Shown one piece after another: positions 1,040-45,599 of a stretch of 45,599 nucleotides of DNA. Made by a program: the position numbers and the translations under genes. The notes below the pieces were generated by a model that was not told where the DNA came from, did no database searches, and was given only the letters and a program-made list of their open reading frames with translations. Position 1 is the stretch's first letter; the number at the start of each line of letters is the position of its first letter. Source of the DNA: a virus (taxonomy: Duplodnaviria; Heunggongvirae; Uroviricota; Caudoviricetes); IMG/VR virus record IMGVR_UViG_3300020594_000001, positions 1 to 45,599 of that record; one strand, written 5' to 3'.

Positions 1040-2430
1040 CCCGCCGCGATAGCGCTATCGAACTGCTTGATGATTTGCTCCAGACTGTCAGCATCATCCT
1101 TGTCGGTGCGGTAGCCAGCTTCAGCCATTCGCGGCAAGAAGAGAGAGTGGGTCTTTCCATCTTTCGAGGGCTTCATCACCGAATTGCTGACGATCGGGTA
1201 GATTTTGCCGATATAGTCTTCGGGGTCAGCGTCGACCGCATCGCGCATGGCTTCATTTTTGATTGTGACGTCGACTTCGAGCAACCCGCATGAACTTCGC
1301 ATGGCAAGAGCCCCCGCCCTGCCCTCGTTCTTCGTGCCCTGCCGCCCGGGGTTAACCCCGACGCAAATCAGGTCGACCACTGCTTCGAGTTTCAGCTTTA
1401 CCTGCTCTTTCGAGGTGTAGTCGCCCCAGATGGCGGTCTTTTGCTTAATGACGGTTCCCTCTTTACCCTTCACCAGCAGCTCACGGTAGTGAGCGTATGC
1501 CTCTTCTAGCGAGTGAACCACCCGAGTATCAATGACTGAAAGGCGGGGCAATGCGGCGCTATTGGCCGCTGCCGTGGGGATGCGGCGAAGCAGTGTCATC
1601 AACCGCTCGATGTAGGGCTTTTTGTAACGCGCCTTGGGCTTGACCTCTTCCAGGGGAATGCAGTCCCAAATTTTGCAAATGACCACGTAGCCCTCTTCAA
1701 GCTTTCCGCCCTGGGCTACGCTATTGAGCATGCCGTTCCCGATTTCGCGCGCGCACTCTTTACCATCAGGGCTGCGCACCAGGAGCTCTCCATGGGTCTG
1801 GGTGTTGACCGGGATACTGAAACGAATAGCCTCGACCAGAGGGGAAAGCTCATCAAGCGGAATCGGCGTGCCCTGGCGCGATGTCAGAGCCACAACGCCG
1901 CCCCGCTCGCAATTGATATTTACGAACATGCCATCCGCTTTTTCCTGGCTGATCACCCCGCGCCCCCAGTTCCACTTAGACAGGTCGGTGTCTTTGGGCA
2001 GCGAACAACGCATGTAAGGGAATGTTGCAATGGTGCCCTTGAACACCTTGTTGACTGTCGACGCCCCGAACCCCGCCCTCAAGTCTTTCTTGATGATGCG
2101 GGTCAAGAGTTCTGCGCTCTTGGCGTCAAGCTGATTCAGCGCTTCCAGAACAGCATCGCGCGCCGCGTTGCCCGAAAGCTCGCGCGATGCAAGCTGGCGA
2201 AGCAAACCGAATCCGCTGATGCCATCCATACACAGCCCGCCCACCGCGTCGCTTGTGCGAACTGGAACGTTCTGGATGCCATAGGTGGTAAAGGGGTCCA
2301 GCGCCGCTTCGATGACATTCATAAAGTTAATGTCTTGCCCGTGCTTGGCGATTAGGGCTTCCTTGTCTTTTTTGCCGGACACGCCTGCAATTTCTTCGAT
2401 CGCGTCGAAAACCTCGCTCGATGTCATCAT
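1036..2430 (-). CDS. ATP-dependent DNA ligase (phage type)
   Basis: KxDG adenylation motif (QEKADG), EGTVIK motif IV, KLK motif V, and an OB-fold C-terminus. Confidence 0.93.
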   Translation of the reverse strand: MMTSSEVFDAIEEIAGVSGKKDKEALIAKHGQDINFMNVIEAALDPFTTYGIQNVPVRTSDAVGGLCMDGISGFGLLRQLASRELSGNAARDAVLEALNQLDAKSAELLTRIIKKDLRAGFGASTVNKVFKGTIATFPYMRCSLPKDTDLSKWNWGRGVISQEKADGMFVNINCERGGVVALTSRQGTPIPLDELSPLVEAIRFSIPVNTQTHGELLVRSPDGKECAREIGNGMLNSVAQGGKLEEGYVVICKIWDCIPLEEVKPKARYKKPYIERLMTLLRRIPTAAANSAALPRLSVIDTRVVHSLEEAYAHYRELLVKGKEGTVIKQKTAIWGDYTSKEQVKLKLEAVVDLICVGVNPGRQGTKNEGRAGALAMRSSCGLLEVDVTIKNEAMRDAVDADPEDYIGKIYPIVSNSVMKPSKDGKTHSLFLPRMAEAGYRTDKDDADSLEQIIKQFDSAIAAG

Positions 2431-2783
2431 TGCGCGTCACCCGTTTCAGCTTCCTGGCCCTGGCTTGCCAGCTTTGCCAGAACGACTTCCCGATTGCGAT
2501 TCAGGGTTGCCTCTGAAAGTTCCGTAGTCCGGATGCGCTCGATCAGACTCGACCAATATGCTCGAATGGCATCATTGTCTACGTTGCCCTCTTCCATCAT
2601 CGAGCACCACGTCAGCGTGCAGCTTTCGGTCGCCAGCAACGTCGCCATGATGACCGGGTGAACCTGTTCTGCCTGCATAATTTCTGCTACCGATTGGCAG
2701 AAGCGCTCGTGGATGCGTCGTAGCGTAGCGACAAAATTTTCTTTATCTTCTTCAGAAAGTTGCTCAAACGCTTGGTCTTGCAT
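2427..2783 (-). CDS. Hypothetical protein (118 aa)
   Basis: AAGGA Shine-Dalgarno; stop overlaps the ligase start (ATGA). Confidence 0.7.
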   Translation of the reverse strand: MQDQAFEQLSEEDKENFVATLRRIHERFCQSVAEIMQAEQVHPVIMATLLATESCTLTWCSMMEEGNVDNDAIRAYWSSLIERIRTTELSEATLNRNREVVLAKLASQGQEAETGDAQ

Positions 2784-2868: not shown

Positions 2869-3936
2869 TCACCCGCGTGCTAATCCAGAACGAAGTGACA
2901 TACGCAAGGTGACTGCGCTCTGCTGGGTAAGCGGCGTTGCCCTGTAGAACGCCTGGCGAACGACTTCGGTAGGCACCTCGTTGGGGTCTTTACCTGGGGG
3001 CAAGATGGCGATTCGAACCGTCAACCCGACTGATCGGGCGTGGAGCCCTGCTTTGATGGCGTCTTCGATTGCTGCAAATTCGCCGTCCCACATGATCGTG
3101 AGCTCTTCCAGCCCGCGCTCTTTGAGCATTCTCAGCTTGTCTAGCTGGCCCAGGGCTAGGTGCTTGCCAAAGCTGCCTATGGGCACCACGTCGCGCAGGT
3201 CTGGGTCTTCATCCAGGGCGATCTTTGCCGCGATCACGTCAAACACCCCCTCGCACAGCAGCGCGCGTCGTGTGCGAGCGACGTTGTGTGCGTTGAATAG
3301 GTGTTCGCCCGTGGATGCGAAGCCAATGGGGAAGAGGTATTTCTTCTCAGCGGTGCCAGTGGTGTCGCGCCCCTGAAAAGAGACCAACTCACCATTGATG
3401 TCGTAAATCGGGATGATGACCCGGTTCGTGTAGTCGACCACAAAGTCGCCCGCGTCCCAGAACGCATCTTTGCTGTAACGAAGGTGAAAATAGCGGGTGG
3501 CGTCCTTCGTTATGCCACGACGGGTGAGGTAGGCAAGGTTGCGGTCGCCCACGGGTAACTCAAACGACTCGGGCAGCACCAGACGCTTCGATTCGTTGCT
3601 TACAGCGAGCGCCTTACGGGCGGGACGCCAGCCGATCTCGCGCCCGACCTGCAGAATGTGTTCATCGAGTCCCTTGCCGCCAAGCCCAGAACTGGCCCGT
3701 ATGAAGCTGAAGCGGTTGAACTTCGCCTCGCAGGAACCCGAGAAGCAATTCCCGAGTCCCGTGTCTTGATTAAGAAATACCTTCCATTTGGAAGTGCCGC
3801 AGACCGGACAGGTTCTGATGTTGTATTGAGCGCCAGAACTACCATGGGTTTCGCGATACTCGACGCCCTCGCGGTCGAGGTATGCCCCGATGGGCAGTGC
3901 GTCAAGAACCTCGGCAACTTCAGGGTTTAAGGCCAT
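2869..3936 (-). CDS. DNA primase (zinc-binding domain plus TOPRIM)
   Basis: N-terminal CPVC...C..C, TOPRIM motifs LCEGVFD and WDGE, and a PGKDPNE tail motif. Confidence 0.9.
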   Translation of the reverse strand: MALNPEVAEVLDALPIGAYLDREGVEYRETHGSSGAQYNIRTCPVCGTSKWKVFLNQDTGLGNCFSGSCEAKFNRFSFIRASSGLGGKGLDEHILQVGREIGWRPARKALAVSNESKRLVLPESFELPVGDRNLAYLTRRGITKDATRYFHLRYSKDAFWDAGDFVVDYTNRVIIPIYDINGELVSFQGRDTTGTAEKKYLFPIGFASTGEHLFNAHNVARTRRALLCEGVFDVIAAKIALDEDPDLRDVVPIGSFGKHLALGQLDKLRMLKERGLEELTIMWDGEFAAIEDAIKAGLHARSVGLTVRIAILPPGKDPNEVPTEVVRQAFYRATPLTQQSAVTLRMSLRSGLARG

Positions 3937-42573: not shown

Positions 42574-42831
42574 ATGCTCCACCGCTCCACGCACCCCACT
42601 CCACTGACGCTGCTATCGAATCTGGGCGTCATCGCCCTGATCGGTTTTGCGCTCTACGTTACCAGCAACCCCTTGGTGCTGCTTGCACTGATGGTGTTGC
42701 CCGCGCTGCCCTACGTGCCCGACGAGCTCAACGTGAGGGTTGCAGAGATACAGGCAAACGCAATTAGTGCTTTGGACGACGAAGAAAGCGACTACAAAGA
42801 AAGTCGAATAGGGTTCGTGCCGAAAGACTAA
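42574..42831 (+). CDS. Small membrane protein (85 aa; start MLHRSTH)
   Basis: AAGGA Shine-Dalgarno; two hydrophobic segments and an acidic tail. Confidence 0.68.
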   Translation: MLHRSTHPTPLTLLSNLGVIALIGFALYVTSNPLVLLALMVLPALPYVPDELNVRVAEIQANAISALDDEESDYKESRIGFVPKD

Positions 42832-42853: not shown

Positions 42854-42878
42854 GCCCTGCCCGGTCGCAGGGCTTTTT
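42854..42878 (+). terminator. Rho-independent terminator
   Basis: GCCCTGC-CCGGTC-GCAGGGC-TTTTT. Confidence 0.78.
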
Positions 42879-42891
42879 GATTTGGAGCTAC

Positions 42892-43641
42892 ATGGAACGA
42901 GACGACTTTGAGCTTACAGGGCAAGCGATCGGTGCGAAGATTTTGACCGCCTACCCCGCTACTGCGGCTTTTCAACCGCGTCGGGGTGATTGGCGTTACC
43001 TCGTCGCGCATTTTCTTGCTGCCAGCCTGGACGATCGCCAGTTTCTTGCGCTCTGCACAGTGGGAGGCGTGCCAGAAAGCGCTGTCAAGTCGACCTATCG
43101 GGAAGGGATAATACTTGGCTGGATGCTGTCAACTGACGCCCGCGCATCGACGATGGCATTGCCATACATCGATCAGCTTGTGGAGCACCTGGTTAAGAGG
43201 CCCACGTCCGCGCAGTTCACGGCACTGCAGAAAGCAGTCGACCAGGCACAAGAAAAAGACATGAGGGTTCGCGCACTACTCGACGCTGATCGTAAGACAG
43301 ATGGCTGGGTGCGCTGCAGTATCGAACTACCCCAAGGGCACCGAATAAACGACTCGCTCGCAGCGCCCTACTACTTTCTTCCCCCTCAAGCAACATTCTC
43401 GCCCGGTGACTTCGTTCATTCGAGCGCAATACGCGTGCACGACGACTACGGGCGCGAGCTCAACCTAGAGACTGACGTCGTGCCCCCGATCAACCCTGAC
43501 GATAAGGTTTTCTGGCACAAGGGGGTCGGTCCTAACTCGGTTGCGTTGCTGGCGGTGGTGAATGCGCCGACCTTCGGGGCTGATACTGGCGAAACTACAT
43601 CAGAAGACATGCAGCGAAATCCCCTCTTTGGAACTTGGTAA
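42892..43641 (+). CDS. Hypothetical protein (249 aa), C-terminus NPLFGTW
   Basis: GGAG Shine-Dalgarno before MERDDF. Confidence 0.8.
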   Translation: MERDDFELTGQAIGAKILTAYPATAAFQPRRGDWRYLVAHFLAASLDDRQFLALCTVGGVPESAVKSTYREGIILGWMLSTDARASTMALPYIDQLVEHLVKRPTSAQFTALQKAVDQAQEKDMRVRALLDADRKTDGWVRCSIELPQGHRINDSLAAPYYFLPPQATFSPGDFVHSSAIRVHDDYGRELNLETDVVPPINPDDKVFWHKGVGPNSVALLAVVNAPTFGADTGETTSEDMQRNPLFGTW

Positions 43642-43880
43642 TGGCACTGAATTCATACGCATTCGATGGCACCCCGATCCCGCGCAGCACCAGCAAGAAG
43701 CTCGCTGCGGGCTTGGAAAAGTTCTTGAGTAGCGGTGCATCTTCAACTGATGATCCACGCTATGGCGATACGCTGCAGGGCAAAACGGGAGTAATGATCG
43801 AGCAAGTCGAGCGCGAAGCTGCACAAGCGCGCGAGAAAGTAGCAAGCGCTGAAGCGAACCCTCTTTGGGGAACTTGGTGA
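43641..43880 (+). CDS. Hypothetical protein (79 aa), C-terminus NPLWGTW
   Basis: TAATG coupling. Confidence 0.75.
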   Translation: MALNSYAFDGTPIPRSTSKKLAAGLEKFLSSGASSTDDPRYGDTLQGKTGVMIEQVEREAAQAREKVASAEANPLWGTW

Positions 43881-44323
43881 GTGGTCCTATCCCGTCGTAT
43901 GGCGTGCGCTTTAAATCGCCCTTTGACCTGATAGAGTTTTACGAGGGCTCTATCGACGCCCCGGGCGCGGTTATCCACAAGATCGCTGGCGAGAATTGCA
44001 TTGACGTTCGTCTGCTTCGTGATGAAGCTAAATTCTCTACCTACGCGACATTGTTTCTCTCTGAAAGGAGCACCCCCTTACAAATCGCTCCCAACCCGAT
44101 ACTCAGCTTTTCTTTGCTCGACGAAGACGACTTCGATTCGGTCGCGAACGAGACGATAACTGCCATCGAGGTGCACAATCTGCCCGCAGTTGTTCACGAC
44201 AGCATTGACGGGTGGGTGCTTAAAATTTTCACCGGGTCGAGCGCACCATCGTCAACACACGTTGCGAAAAAGAAGTCTGTGCGCTTTGAGAGCGAAGCTG
44301 ACAAGCGCTGGGGAACGTGGTGA
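43877..44323 (+). CDS. Hypothetical protein (148 aa), C-terminus DKRWGTW
   Basis: GTGA coupling. Confidence 0.75.
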   Translation: MSGPIPSYGVRFKSPFDLIEFYEGSIDAPGAVIHKIAGENCIDVRLLRDEAKFSTYATLFLSERSTPLQIAPNPILSFSLLDEDDFDSVANETITAIEVHNLPAVVHDSIDGWVLKIFTGSSAPSSTHVAKKKSVRFESEADKRWGTW

Positions 44324-44724
44324 CCAAGCTCAACTCGTTCTTTCACGGGCGCTTCGATTCAGTGCACATCTACAAGGCTGACGGCATCATCTCCAAGAAA
44401 ATCGCTGGCTACGCGCTACCCCAAAATGTCAGCGTCAGCACTGGTAATTTGCTATCGGGAGAAGGCATATACGAATGCTCTGTATTTGTTCGTGATGACA
44501 AAGCGCTCGAACCCTTAACCGTGTTATTACCTAGCGATGATGATATCTGGGTCGAATTCGCCCTGGTCGAAGTCGCTGCATTTTTGCCCGAAAATGGGGG
44601 AACTCTTGAAATCTACGTCACCGAAGCGCAAATTCAAGAGTTCATTCCTCCAGAAAAACGATCATTGCGCGGTATGAACGACACCCCAATAAGCGAGGGT
44701 CGCCCGCTGTATGGAACTTGGTGA
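44320..44724 (+). CDS. Hypothetical protein (134 aa), C-terminus RPLYGTW
   Basis: GTGA coupling. Confidence 0.75.
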   Translation: MTKLNSFFHGRFDSVHIYKADGIISKKIAGYALPQNVSVSTGNLLSGEGIYECSVFVRDDKALEPLTVLLPSDDDIWVEFALVEVAAFLPENGGTLEIYVTEAQIQEFIPPEKRSLRGMNDTPISEGRPLYGTW

Positions 44725-44789: not shown

Positions 44790-45065
44790 ATGAAAGTCAT
44801 TCGGTCTAACGTTGCACTGCTCGAAGAGTCGATTGAGCGACTCGATTCACTCGCTCAAAGCTCAGGAGTCTCGCGCAACAAGTTCTTCGAGTGCGTATCG
44901 CTCATGACTGAAGCGCAAGCAAAAGCGATCGTCAAAGCGCATCTGAGCGCGGTCGACGCTGCTTATAAAGAGAAGAACCAGAAAGCGACTGCTGAACGTC
45001 GTGCGGGTCGCGAACTGCTTAGCAAGCTCAGTGAAAAAGAAATCAAAGCAATCATGAAGCGCTGA
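44790..45065 (+). CDS. Ribbon-helix-helix (CopG/Arc-like) DNA-binding protein with a helical C-terminal extension
   Basis: Beta strand IRSNVAL, helix EESIERLDSLAQSSG, helix VSRNKFFECV. Confidence 0.68.
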   Translation: MKVIRSNVALLEESIERLDSLAQSSGVSRNKFFECVSLMTEAQAKAIVKAHLSAVDAAYKEKNQKATAERRAGRELLSKLSEKEIKAIMKR

Positions 45066-45103
45066 GCGACGCCCGACAGGGCGGCGCGCGGGGCGCGCGA
45101 CTG

Positions 45104-45338
45104 AGATATAAGGATAGGCGCATCTTTCTGGGTGCGCTTTTTTCTTGGGCGCTGGGTCTTTGGCCAAATATAAGGATCGAATTGCTCGGGGTCTGGGGAT
45201 TTTGGCGATGGGTGCTTGGCTAAATATAAGGATCAATTCTGAAGCGCCCCCTATGCCTATACACCTGTGTGAAATATAAGGATGAATTCAAATCGGACAA
45301 TGATCTATATGGGAATGGGAAAATATAAGGATGAATTC
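45104..45338 (+). repeat. Five direct repeats with core ATATAAGGAT (consensus AAATATAAGGATSAATTC)
   Basis: Cores at 45106, 45168, 45224, 45274 and 45323 (spacing 62, 56, 50, 49 bp). Confidence 0.88.
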
Positions 45339-45599
45339 AAAAATCGGAAAAACGGCGTGAGGCCCATCCCGCAGACAGCGCGCCGCATCTAAGGGGTATC
45401 ACCCTCCGGGCAAACACGTCCGGGGCGGGACCGGGGGCAAGCGCCCGGGGGTCAGCGCCCCGGGCGCGTGTGCTGCCCTATAGTTCCATGCTCAGCTGCC
45501 CTATGCTTGCGTCATGAACATCGTTACACCATGATTCCATTTCGAGTGCAAAGTCAGTATTCGGGTTAGTTGCTTTACGTGCTGGCGCTTGCGTAGCGG

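Follow-up and report, generated by a model that had tools for sequence, protein, structure and literature searches.

Four consecutive genes near the end of a 45,599-nucleotide stretch of viral DNA encode proteins that all finish in an aromatic residue followed by Gly-Thr-Trp. This stretch, the window, makes up the initial 45.6 kb of the 109,599-bp virus record IMGVR_UViG_3300020594_000001 (Caudoviricetes; GC content of the record 55%). Coordinates given as genome are those of the whole record, and window positions equal its first 45.6 kb. The genes, termed t1 to t4, form a tightly overlapping array on the + strand, where the order is helicase, 85-aa membrane-protein gene, hairpin and then t1–t4 (Table 1). 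Their unusual ends were noted in a preliminary description of the window, and are confirmed both by the open reading frames and by an independent gene caller, which returned the same 249-, 79-, 148- and 134-aa genes on three public contigs of 100% identity. The accompanying DNA sequence GGAAC(T/G)TGGT(A/G)A is likewise present at all four of the sites given there (43630, 43869, 44312 and 44713), and in both strands of the whole 109,599-bp genome GGAAC[ACGT]TGGT[AG]A is found at these positions only. The last gene of the array was said to have no coupled successor, and indeed the next open reading frame, that of a ribbon-helix-helix (RHH) protein, begins 65 nt downstream. A weak similarity suggested between the t3 and t4 proteins does not reach significance (37% over 27 aa, E = 0.24 in a database of nine sequences). 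A terminator-like hairpin with a T run separates the array from the 85-aa gene; therefore t1–t4 seem to be read either by read-through of the terminator or from a promoter that did not show.

Table 1. Coordinates of the tail-bearing genes, their C-terminal tails and other features of the genome.
Feature	Position	Strand	Description
t1	42892..43641	+	249-aa acidic orphan; C-terminal end ...EDMQRNPLFGTW; tail RNPLFGTW
t1 tail	43618..43641	+	N-P-L-F-G-T-W + TAA; stop overlaps t2 ATG (TAATG)
t2	43641..43880	+	79 aa; C-terminal end ...ASAEANPLWGTW; tail ANPLWGTW
t2 tail	43857..43880	+	N-P-L-W-G-T-W + TGA; t3 GTG start overlaps stop (GTGA)
t3	43877..44323	+	148-aa acidic orphan; C-terminal end ...ESEADKRWGTW
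t3 tail	44309..44323	+	W-G-T-W + TGA; overlapped by t4 GTG start (GTGGTGA)
t4	44317/44320..44724	+	134/135-aa acidic orphan; ends ...SEGRPLYGTW; final array gene
t4 tail	44704..44724	+	P-L-Y-G-T-W + TGA; no coupled gene downstream
t5	genome 75132-75473	-	ends DPNWGAW; beyond window
t6	genome 88687-89130	-	ends NPNWGSW; directly after sbcC; beyond window
t7	genome 93636-94007	-	ends HPAWGSW; C-terminal region of exonuclease X; beyond window
85-aa membrane-protein gene	window 42574-42831		
Terminator-like GC hairpin + T run	42854..42873	+	between 85-aa gene and t1; from a consensus scan only
Ribosome-binding site of t1	42882-42885		GGAG
ATP-dependent ligase	genome 1036-2430		in window
DnaG-like primase	genome 2869-3936		in window
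DnaB-like helicase	genome 4343-5725		in window
Structural module	window 7-36 kb		
UvsW-like helicase	genome 41007-42542		in window
DnaE polymerase + UDG domain fusion	genome 98366-101734		beyond window

The tail is not confined to the array. Scanning the entire genome in six frames revealed three further carriers, t5, t6 and t7, all situated in the DNA-metabolism module. In the 34,127 residues of the proteome there are seven instances of [FWY]G[TSA]W, every one of them at a C-terminus, where 0.003 would be expected (Poisson P about 4e-22). Proteins ending in Trp are themselves over-represented (13 of 178, against 2.3 expected). The bodies of the seven carriers are mutually unrelated by blastp, with t1–t5 and t7 being singletons; t6 alone clusters with a family of proteins encoded downstream of sbcC. 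A search of all the carriers against Pfam, PHROGs and NCBIfam gave a single match, the ExoX C-terminal region on t7, so that t1–t4 match nothing in these collections. Among 5.8 billion clusters t1 and t5 found only themselves, and t1, t4, t6 and t7 gave no tblastn match in 50,697 phage records. A scan for related loci using t1 found none, and the ESM Atlas returned nothing usable for t1 and t3. The carriers are soluble and mostly acidic, and a hydropathy scan, made with an exported-protein sorting tag or an outer-membrane beta-signal in mind, indicates no membrane-like segment in any of them (maximum 19-residue Kyte-Doolittle mean 1.47 or less). Ahead of each tail lies a sequence, charged or rich in Pro/Gly/Ser, that looks like a flexible linker, and the tail consensus can be written [ND]-P-x-[FWY]-G-[STA]-[WF]-COOH.

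How widespread is the tail? For comparison 80 related loci around the RuvC-like gene were taken. In nearly all of them the gene that lies between sbcC and the RuvC-like gene encodes a protein with the C-terminus [DN]-P-x-Ar-G-x-[WF] (Ar being an aromatic residue) or [LI]-G-F-G-S-W, examples being KDLGFGSW, INPAFGSW, ENPVWGTW, IHPLWGTW, SNPLWGIF, NDPTFGAF and ECPTWATW. The t6 protein clusters with 24 of these sbcC-downstream proteins. Searching 1.84 billion representatives with a profile of the family gave 771 matches at E<=1e-3. Of the best 150 members, 139 have an exact hydrophobic/aromatic-[GA]-x-[WFY] end, and nine more have one extra residue. Numbering the terminal residue as 0, the counts in these 150 are W102 F37 at 0, S102 T18 at -1, G129 A12 at -2 and F109 Y19 W11 at -3. 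The bodies are only about 20% identical on average, while the Gly of the tail is nearly invariant. All four array proteins follow this positional rule, with F/W/W/Y-G-T-W at the extreme C-terminus; the preceding NPL (t1), NPL (t2) and RPL (t4) fit the D/N-P-x subtype, whereas the DKR of t3 does not. Thus t1–t4 have the tail in common with the sbcC-downstream family, and not homology of the body.

The gene order around the family is sbcD-sbcC-[family]-...-RuvC-like-RNR (RNR, ribonucleotide reductase) in four of four sampled contexts. Its profile found no match among Pfam families or the sequences of the PDB. An AF2 model of the family core (pLDDT 90.5) comprises a helix, a small six-stranded barrel, a 44-residue helix and a free tail. 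Foldseek found no convincing structural neighbour of the core in the PDB; BFVD gave one uncharacterised protein, which is not convincing, VIA-align gave a best Z of 5.5, equally unconvincing, and the AFDB clusters returned uncharacterised relatives only. One member (L113:4501-4995) ends ...ANPIFGAF-LIPNFGAF, a tandem duplication of the tail motif, which hints at an oligomeric receptor. P0114, an apparent fusion of SbcC with a family member, was considered as a pointer to the hub and set aside as a deletion remnant: at L143:6001-7152 of a bacterial contig (GCA_030155485.1) a deletion in a decayed prophage of this phage group has left the SbcC N-terminus fused to the sbcC-downstream protein, and the neighbouring CobS gene is truncated.

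Relatives also carry the tail on other proteins. The gene sets of the relatives came from a greedy ORF picker; the C-termini are set by stop codons and are robust to the choice of start, and some of the short ORFs may be spurious. An ExoX-C-like protein of the distant relative L140 ends QWGAW. In G001 the protein between ligase and primase (L025:15972-16439; 156 aa) ends ESWGTW and contains a WGR domain (PF05406, E 3e-13), with which PARP enzymes bind DNA breaks; the same position in the present genome is taken by a tail-less 118-aa gene (window 2427-2783). In G006 and G009 the ends AWGTW and GWATW, respectively, belong to proteins encoded between primase and ligase, and in G007 a protein between recA and sbcD ends IHPLWGTW. 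In the cultured Pseudomonas phage nickie gp091 ends FGGWA and gp090 ends IGGWA. The tail is kept on positional orthologues whose bodies have diverged. There are about two carriers per genome in the relatives that were checked in full (G001, G002, G006, G007, G009 and the sbcC region of nickie), against seven here. A comparison of the array locus across relatives, proposed at the outset, shows that the region after the helicase is a variable hot spot.

Selection is seen to act on the peptide. Every synonymous site differs between the Asn-Pro-Leu codons of the array (AAT CCC CTC in t1, AAC CCT CTT in t2, and CCG CTG after CGC in t4). In 44 tails of relatives serine is encoded by both TCN (13) and AGY (9), and therefore selection is on the amino acid. 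Furthermore, tails on unrelated proteins of the same genome resemble one another: in ten genomes, chosen for having two or more carriers, they agree at 3.53 of four variable positions compared with 2.45 after shuffling (p about 1e-5). A single receptor would account for this, as would copying of the tail inside a genome, and in both cases the tag is portable and shared.

Taking these results together, we are inclined to regard t1–t4 as a lineage-specific array of orphan accessory genes bearing a portable C-terminal docking peptide of this phage of about 110 kb, of the SSU5/nickie-like kind; this interpretation is somewhat more probable than not. The motif, its exclusively C-terminal location, its conservation throughout the family, its portability and the selection at the protein level are all observed. 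The peptide has its conserved home in the core protein of this phage group encoded directly after sbcC, with its small beta-barrel, long helix and tail; among smaller proteins of DNA metabolism, the ExoX-C-like protein and the WGR-domain protein encoded between the primase and ligase genes carry the tail as well. The mechanism we envisage is as follows. The free carboxy-terminus of the terminal Trp or Phe, together with the aromatic residue three positions upstream, would plug into a single receptor pocket, on a protein of the phage recombination/replication machinery or on a host hub. Any body with the tail could then be recruited to that site or compete for it, and the phage would have copied the tail onto seven proteins. 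In the array, a flexible linker would join each protein to its portable tail, and the probable site to which t1–t4 are brought, or for which they compete, is the receptor that the sbcC-downstream protein uses. The rare GGA codon in the array would in addition act as a weak ribosome-binding site for each start that overlaps it. The preliminary suggestion of a shared C-terminal address tag is strengthened by the three additional, unrelated carriers with different codons, by the family-wide terminus and diverged orthologues, and by the agreement within genomes.

A number of points weigh against the docking interpretation. That the tail binds a partner is something we infer by analogy with short C-terminal motifs elsewhere. 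The t3 tail, unlike the others, has no Pro-x before its aromatic residue. The array proteins have no homologues in which the conservation of their own tails could be followed. Gene conversion, and not co-evolution with a receptor, could be the source of the agreement within genomes. The array tails share GGAAC(T/G)TGG beyond what the peptide needs (P about 7e-5 for four GGA codons), so that part of their identity lies at the nucleotide level, reflecting a ribosome-binding site, recent copying or both. Finally, an array with REGE ends in the relative G003 shows that coupling alone can create shared tails.

What else might the tail be? The array proteins could be decoys, which displace the sbcC-downstream protein or occupy its receptor during a particular stage of infection and act as regulators or inhibitors, not as recruited cargo. 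We consider this unlikely, though it accommodates several of the observations: the orphans share only the tail with the core protein, carriers are more numerous here than in the relatives, and the array is a tightly coupled unit following a terminator-like hairpin. The sequence data do not separate recruitment from competition. Bodies of 79–249 aa exceed what simple competition would call for.

A degradation tag, in which the aromatic-G-x-W end is read by a protease or unfoldase of host or phage and the proteins are short-lived, is less probable still. C-terminal peptides are a known class of bacterial degron (ssrA, MuA and SulA), and the tails are exposed on apparently flexible linkers; however, we know of no degron that the tail resembles. 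Moreover, in a core protein encoded in the recombination operon of hundreds of phage lineages, nothing is conserved as well as the tail; this fits a working interaction better than disposal, and the tandem occurrence of the tail in one relative suggests avidity for a partner. For proteolytic or covalent processing, another of the possibilities raised initially, no evidence was found.

It is very unlikely that the tail is a by-product of translational coupling, or of a 12-bp recombination junction, with the peptide being incidental. Codon usage, the G003 array and the variability of the locus speak for it. The Gly codon is GGA in all four array tails, where it is followed by ACT or ACG for Thr, and GGA makes up just 9% of Gly codons in the genome as a whole; in relatives' tails it accounts for 19 of 35, chiefly where the next start overlaps (TAATG). 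The proposal that GGA doubles as a Shine-Dalgarno element is supported as a second layer, at the nucleotide level. In G003, at the same variable locus, coiled-coil paralogues have REGE ends encoded by GGGAGGGTGAGTAATG, comprising a Shine-Dalgarno element and an overlapping start. Against this, t4 has the tail and yet no coupled gene, and the dispersed carriers use GGC GCT, GGC AGT and GGA AGC, so that t5 and t6 encode the Gly with GGC. Serine is drawn from both codon families. Across 150 diverged members the conserved positions include the aromatic residue at -3, Pro at -5 and a terminal Trp/Phe, none of which a ribosome-binding site requires, and the motif is never internal. The residues that are conserved are the ones with no part in ribosome binding, in keeping with the early remark that coupling does not explain the P-L-aromatic segment. 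Coupling or a junction as the sole explanation is largely refuted; a 12-bp junction through which cassettes are swapped is not the main explanation, as conservation of the peptide extends beyond that of the DNA. The G003 array (L015:11955-14445, downstream of the same helicase) comprises six coiled-coil paralogues with the repeat RAENERLR; one has the C-terminus QEKK and the other five have (R)EGE (REGE or GEGE), for which the DNA reads GGGAGGGTGAGT(A/G)ATG.

Targeting to the capsid or virion for co-injection is highly improbable: the carriers are small and acidic, and C-terminal cargo-loading peptides exist in encapsulins as do targeting peptides in internal proteins of phage T4, but we found no evidence for the virion loading first suggested, the conserved carriers without exception belong to operons of replication and recombination, where their genes follow sbcC, neighbour recA or separate primase from ligase, and the structural module contributes none of the listed W-ended proteins.

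Docking of the array proteins through their tails would have precedents. Cells, and likewise phages T7 and T4, organise their DNA replication and repair through short docking peptides at C-termini; to our knowledge few such motifs are known in phages. In T7 the single-stranded DNA-binding protein (SSB) gp2.5 and the helicase-primase gp4 have acidic tails, both ending in Phe, that dock on the T7 DNA polymerase. The likeness is that DNA-machinery proteins of one phage carry the same short flexible tail, that the terminal aromatic residue and free carboxylate matter, and that the tails compete for one receptor. The difference is an acidic run ending in F in T7, in contrast to [ND]-P-x-Ar-G-[ST]-W on up to seven proteins, orphans included. 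The C-terminal peptide of SSB (D-D-D-I-P-F) is also at the extreme C-terminus on a disordered linker, ends in an aromatic residue and serves as a hub motif in DNA metabolism. There, one hub tail is read by the pockets of many clients, whereas here it is the clients that bear the tail. The comparison with SSB made in the preliminary description holds for the mode of action only; the sequences do not match, since our tails have no penultimate Pro and no Asp run, sharing only the terminal aromatic residue and, in some carriers, a mildly acidic linker.

The closest logic is that of the sliding clamp, for which unrelated proteins of DNA metabolism carry a short, often C-terminal hydrophobic motif that enters one hub pocket. 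The T4 proteins gp43, gp33 and gp55 have C-terminal clamp-binding tails of this kind. The array tails differ in lacking Gln, in having Pro where an aliphatic residue is required and in the internal Gly, and t5–t7 have no [LM]-[FL] pair (P-N-W-G). The bacterial clamp-binding motif is Q-phi-x-[LM]-[FL] or Q-phi-x-[L/M]-x-[F/L], and Trp at its last position weakens binding to the clamp (PMC11139829). Our tails do not conform to it, and no clamp is detectable in this phage. We would describe the finding as a putative C-terminal docking motif of phage DNA machinery, with a previously undescribed motif and family. Searches of the open literature, which covered the motif, C-terminal Trp motifs in phages, accessory tails of Mre11-Rad50 and the ExoX C-terminal domain, turned up no description of the motif or the family.

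Which protein might provide the pocket? The phage SbcCD (Mre11-Rad50-like) complex is our leading candidate, if a doubtful one; the basis is the gene neighbourhood, in which genes for carriers precede sbcD, follow sbcC or sit between the two. A complex prediction for SbcD, the two SbcC head lobes and the sbcC-downstream protein, with alignments, gave a score of 0.00, which tells neither for nor against binding. Two other hubs were considered. A phage-encoded clamp or SSB was set aside, because neither a member of the DnaN (clamp) family nor one of the SSB family (PF00436) was detectable in the phage genome; the 208-aa gene before dnaE also lacks a clamp-like signal. The RNR large subunit was rejected, as RNR is absent from the relatives G001 and G002, which keep the tail, and the register of NrdB differs. 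The RNR small subunits of the phage group do have Trp-containing ends, GGALxW and GTLxDWD (NrdB in L050-L087), and that of this phage (genome 83675-84670) ends VGALQW; this is presumably their own R1-binding tail.

A wider proposal is plausible at a tentative level, falling short of the docking-array interpretation in likelihood. The DnaE/SbcCD phages of about 100–130 kb (SSU5-, nickie- and RHEph10-like) might possess a private 'tail code', in which a phage-encoded receptor in the recombination/replication machinery around SbcCD reads the Trp-ended tail, peptide and receptor co-evolve between lineages, and orphans such as those of the array become effectors by gaining seven residues. If true, this would be the phage counterpart of the clamp or SSB interaction hubs, with an undescribed motif and a family of 770 clusters, and if the receptor were SbcCD a Mre11-Rad50 complex of the bacterial type would have a third partner, tethered by its tail. 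Leaving the receptor aside, the new motif marks a large uncharacterised family adjoining sbcCD in a widespread group of large temperate phages and phage-plasmids, to which the enterobacterial SSU5-like elements probably belong, and it tags orphan genes that are otherwise unclassifiable. A regular expression could assign a likely site of action to such proteins, the seven-residue peptide could be used as bait for the receptor, and gp090 and gp091 of Pseudomonas phage nickie offer a cultured test system.

The array tail is not the only Trp-ended tail in this phage group. Some 27 relatives have a second one, R-D-x-P-x-T-x(3)-[DE]-A-W, on a Cys-rich protein encoded downstream of the RuvC-like gene (L041-L120, the genes starting about 5.6 kb into each locus), and some have two such genes in a row. 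Its positional equivalents here, beyond the window at 87577-88092 and 65690-66145, end DNAGIW and EIAGSW. Like the array tail it is found in this phage group on small unrelated proteins, but it differs in both motif and home protein. In the N4-like Escherichia phage G7C, the SSB gp45 and the protein gp47 (L039:1698-2501 and 3057-3506), encoded on opposite sides of the RuvC-like gene, both end ...SLF(A)G(L)KR(S), which may be another shared C-terminal motif around this gene; the sbcC-downstream family profile does not match the N4-like SSB adjoining that gene in G7C.

The remainder of the genome is that of a large phage with its own replication and recombination functions. In addition to the genes of Table 1 it encodes, beyond the window, SbcD, SbcC, a RuvC-like resolvase, RecA, a 5′-3′ exonuclease and RNR, as well as ThyX, RtcB, a sigma factor, CobS/CobT and an integrase. 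Its closest named relatives are phages of about 105–120 kb, such as nickie, RHEph10 and SSU5. Downstream of the array, window 44790-45400 contains the RHH gene (PF01402, E 5e-5); after it come a terminator-like hairpin and ATATAAGGAT in five copies, the spacing of which shrinks. The DnaE-type polymerase has an unusual C-terminus, in which a uracil-DNA-glycosylase (UDG) superfamily domain (PF03167, residues 971-1101) replaces the usual OB/tau-binding end, and this fusion is kept in relatives.

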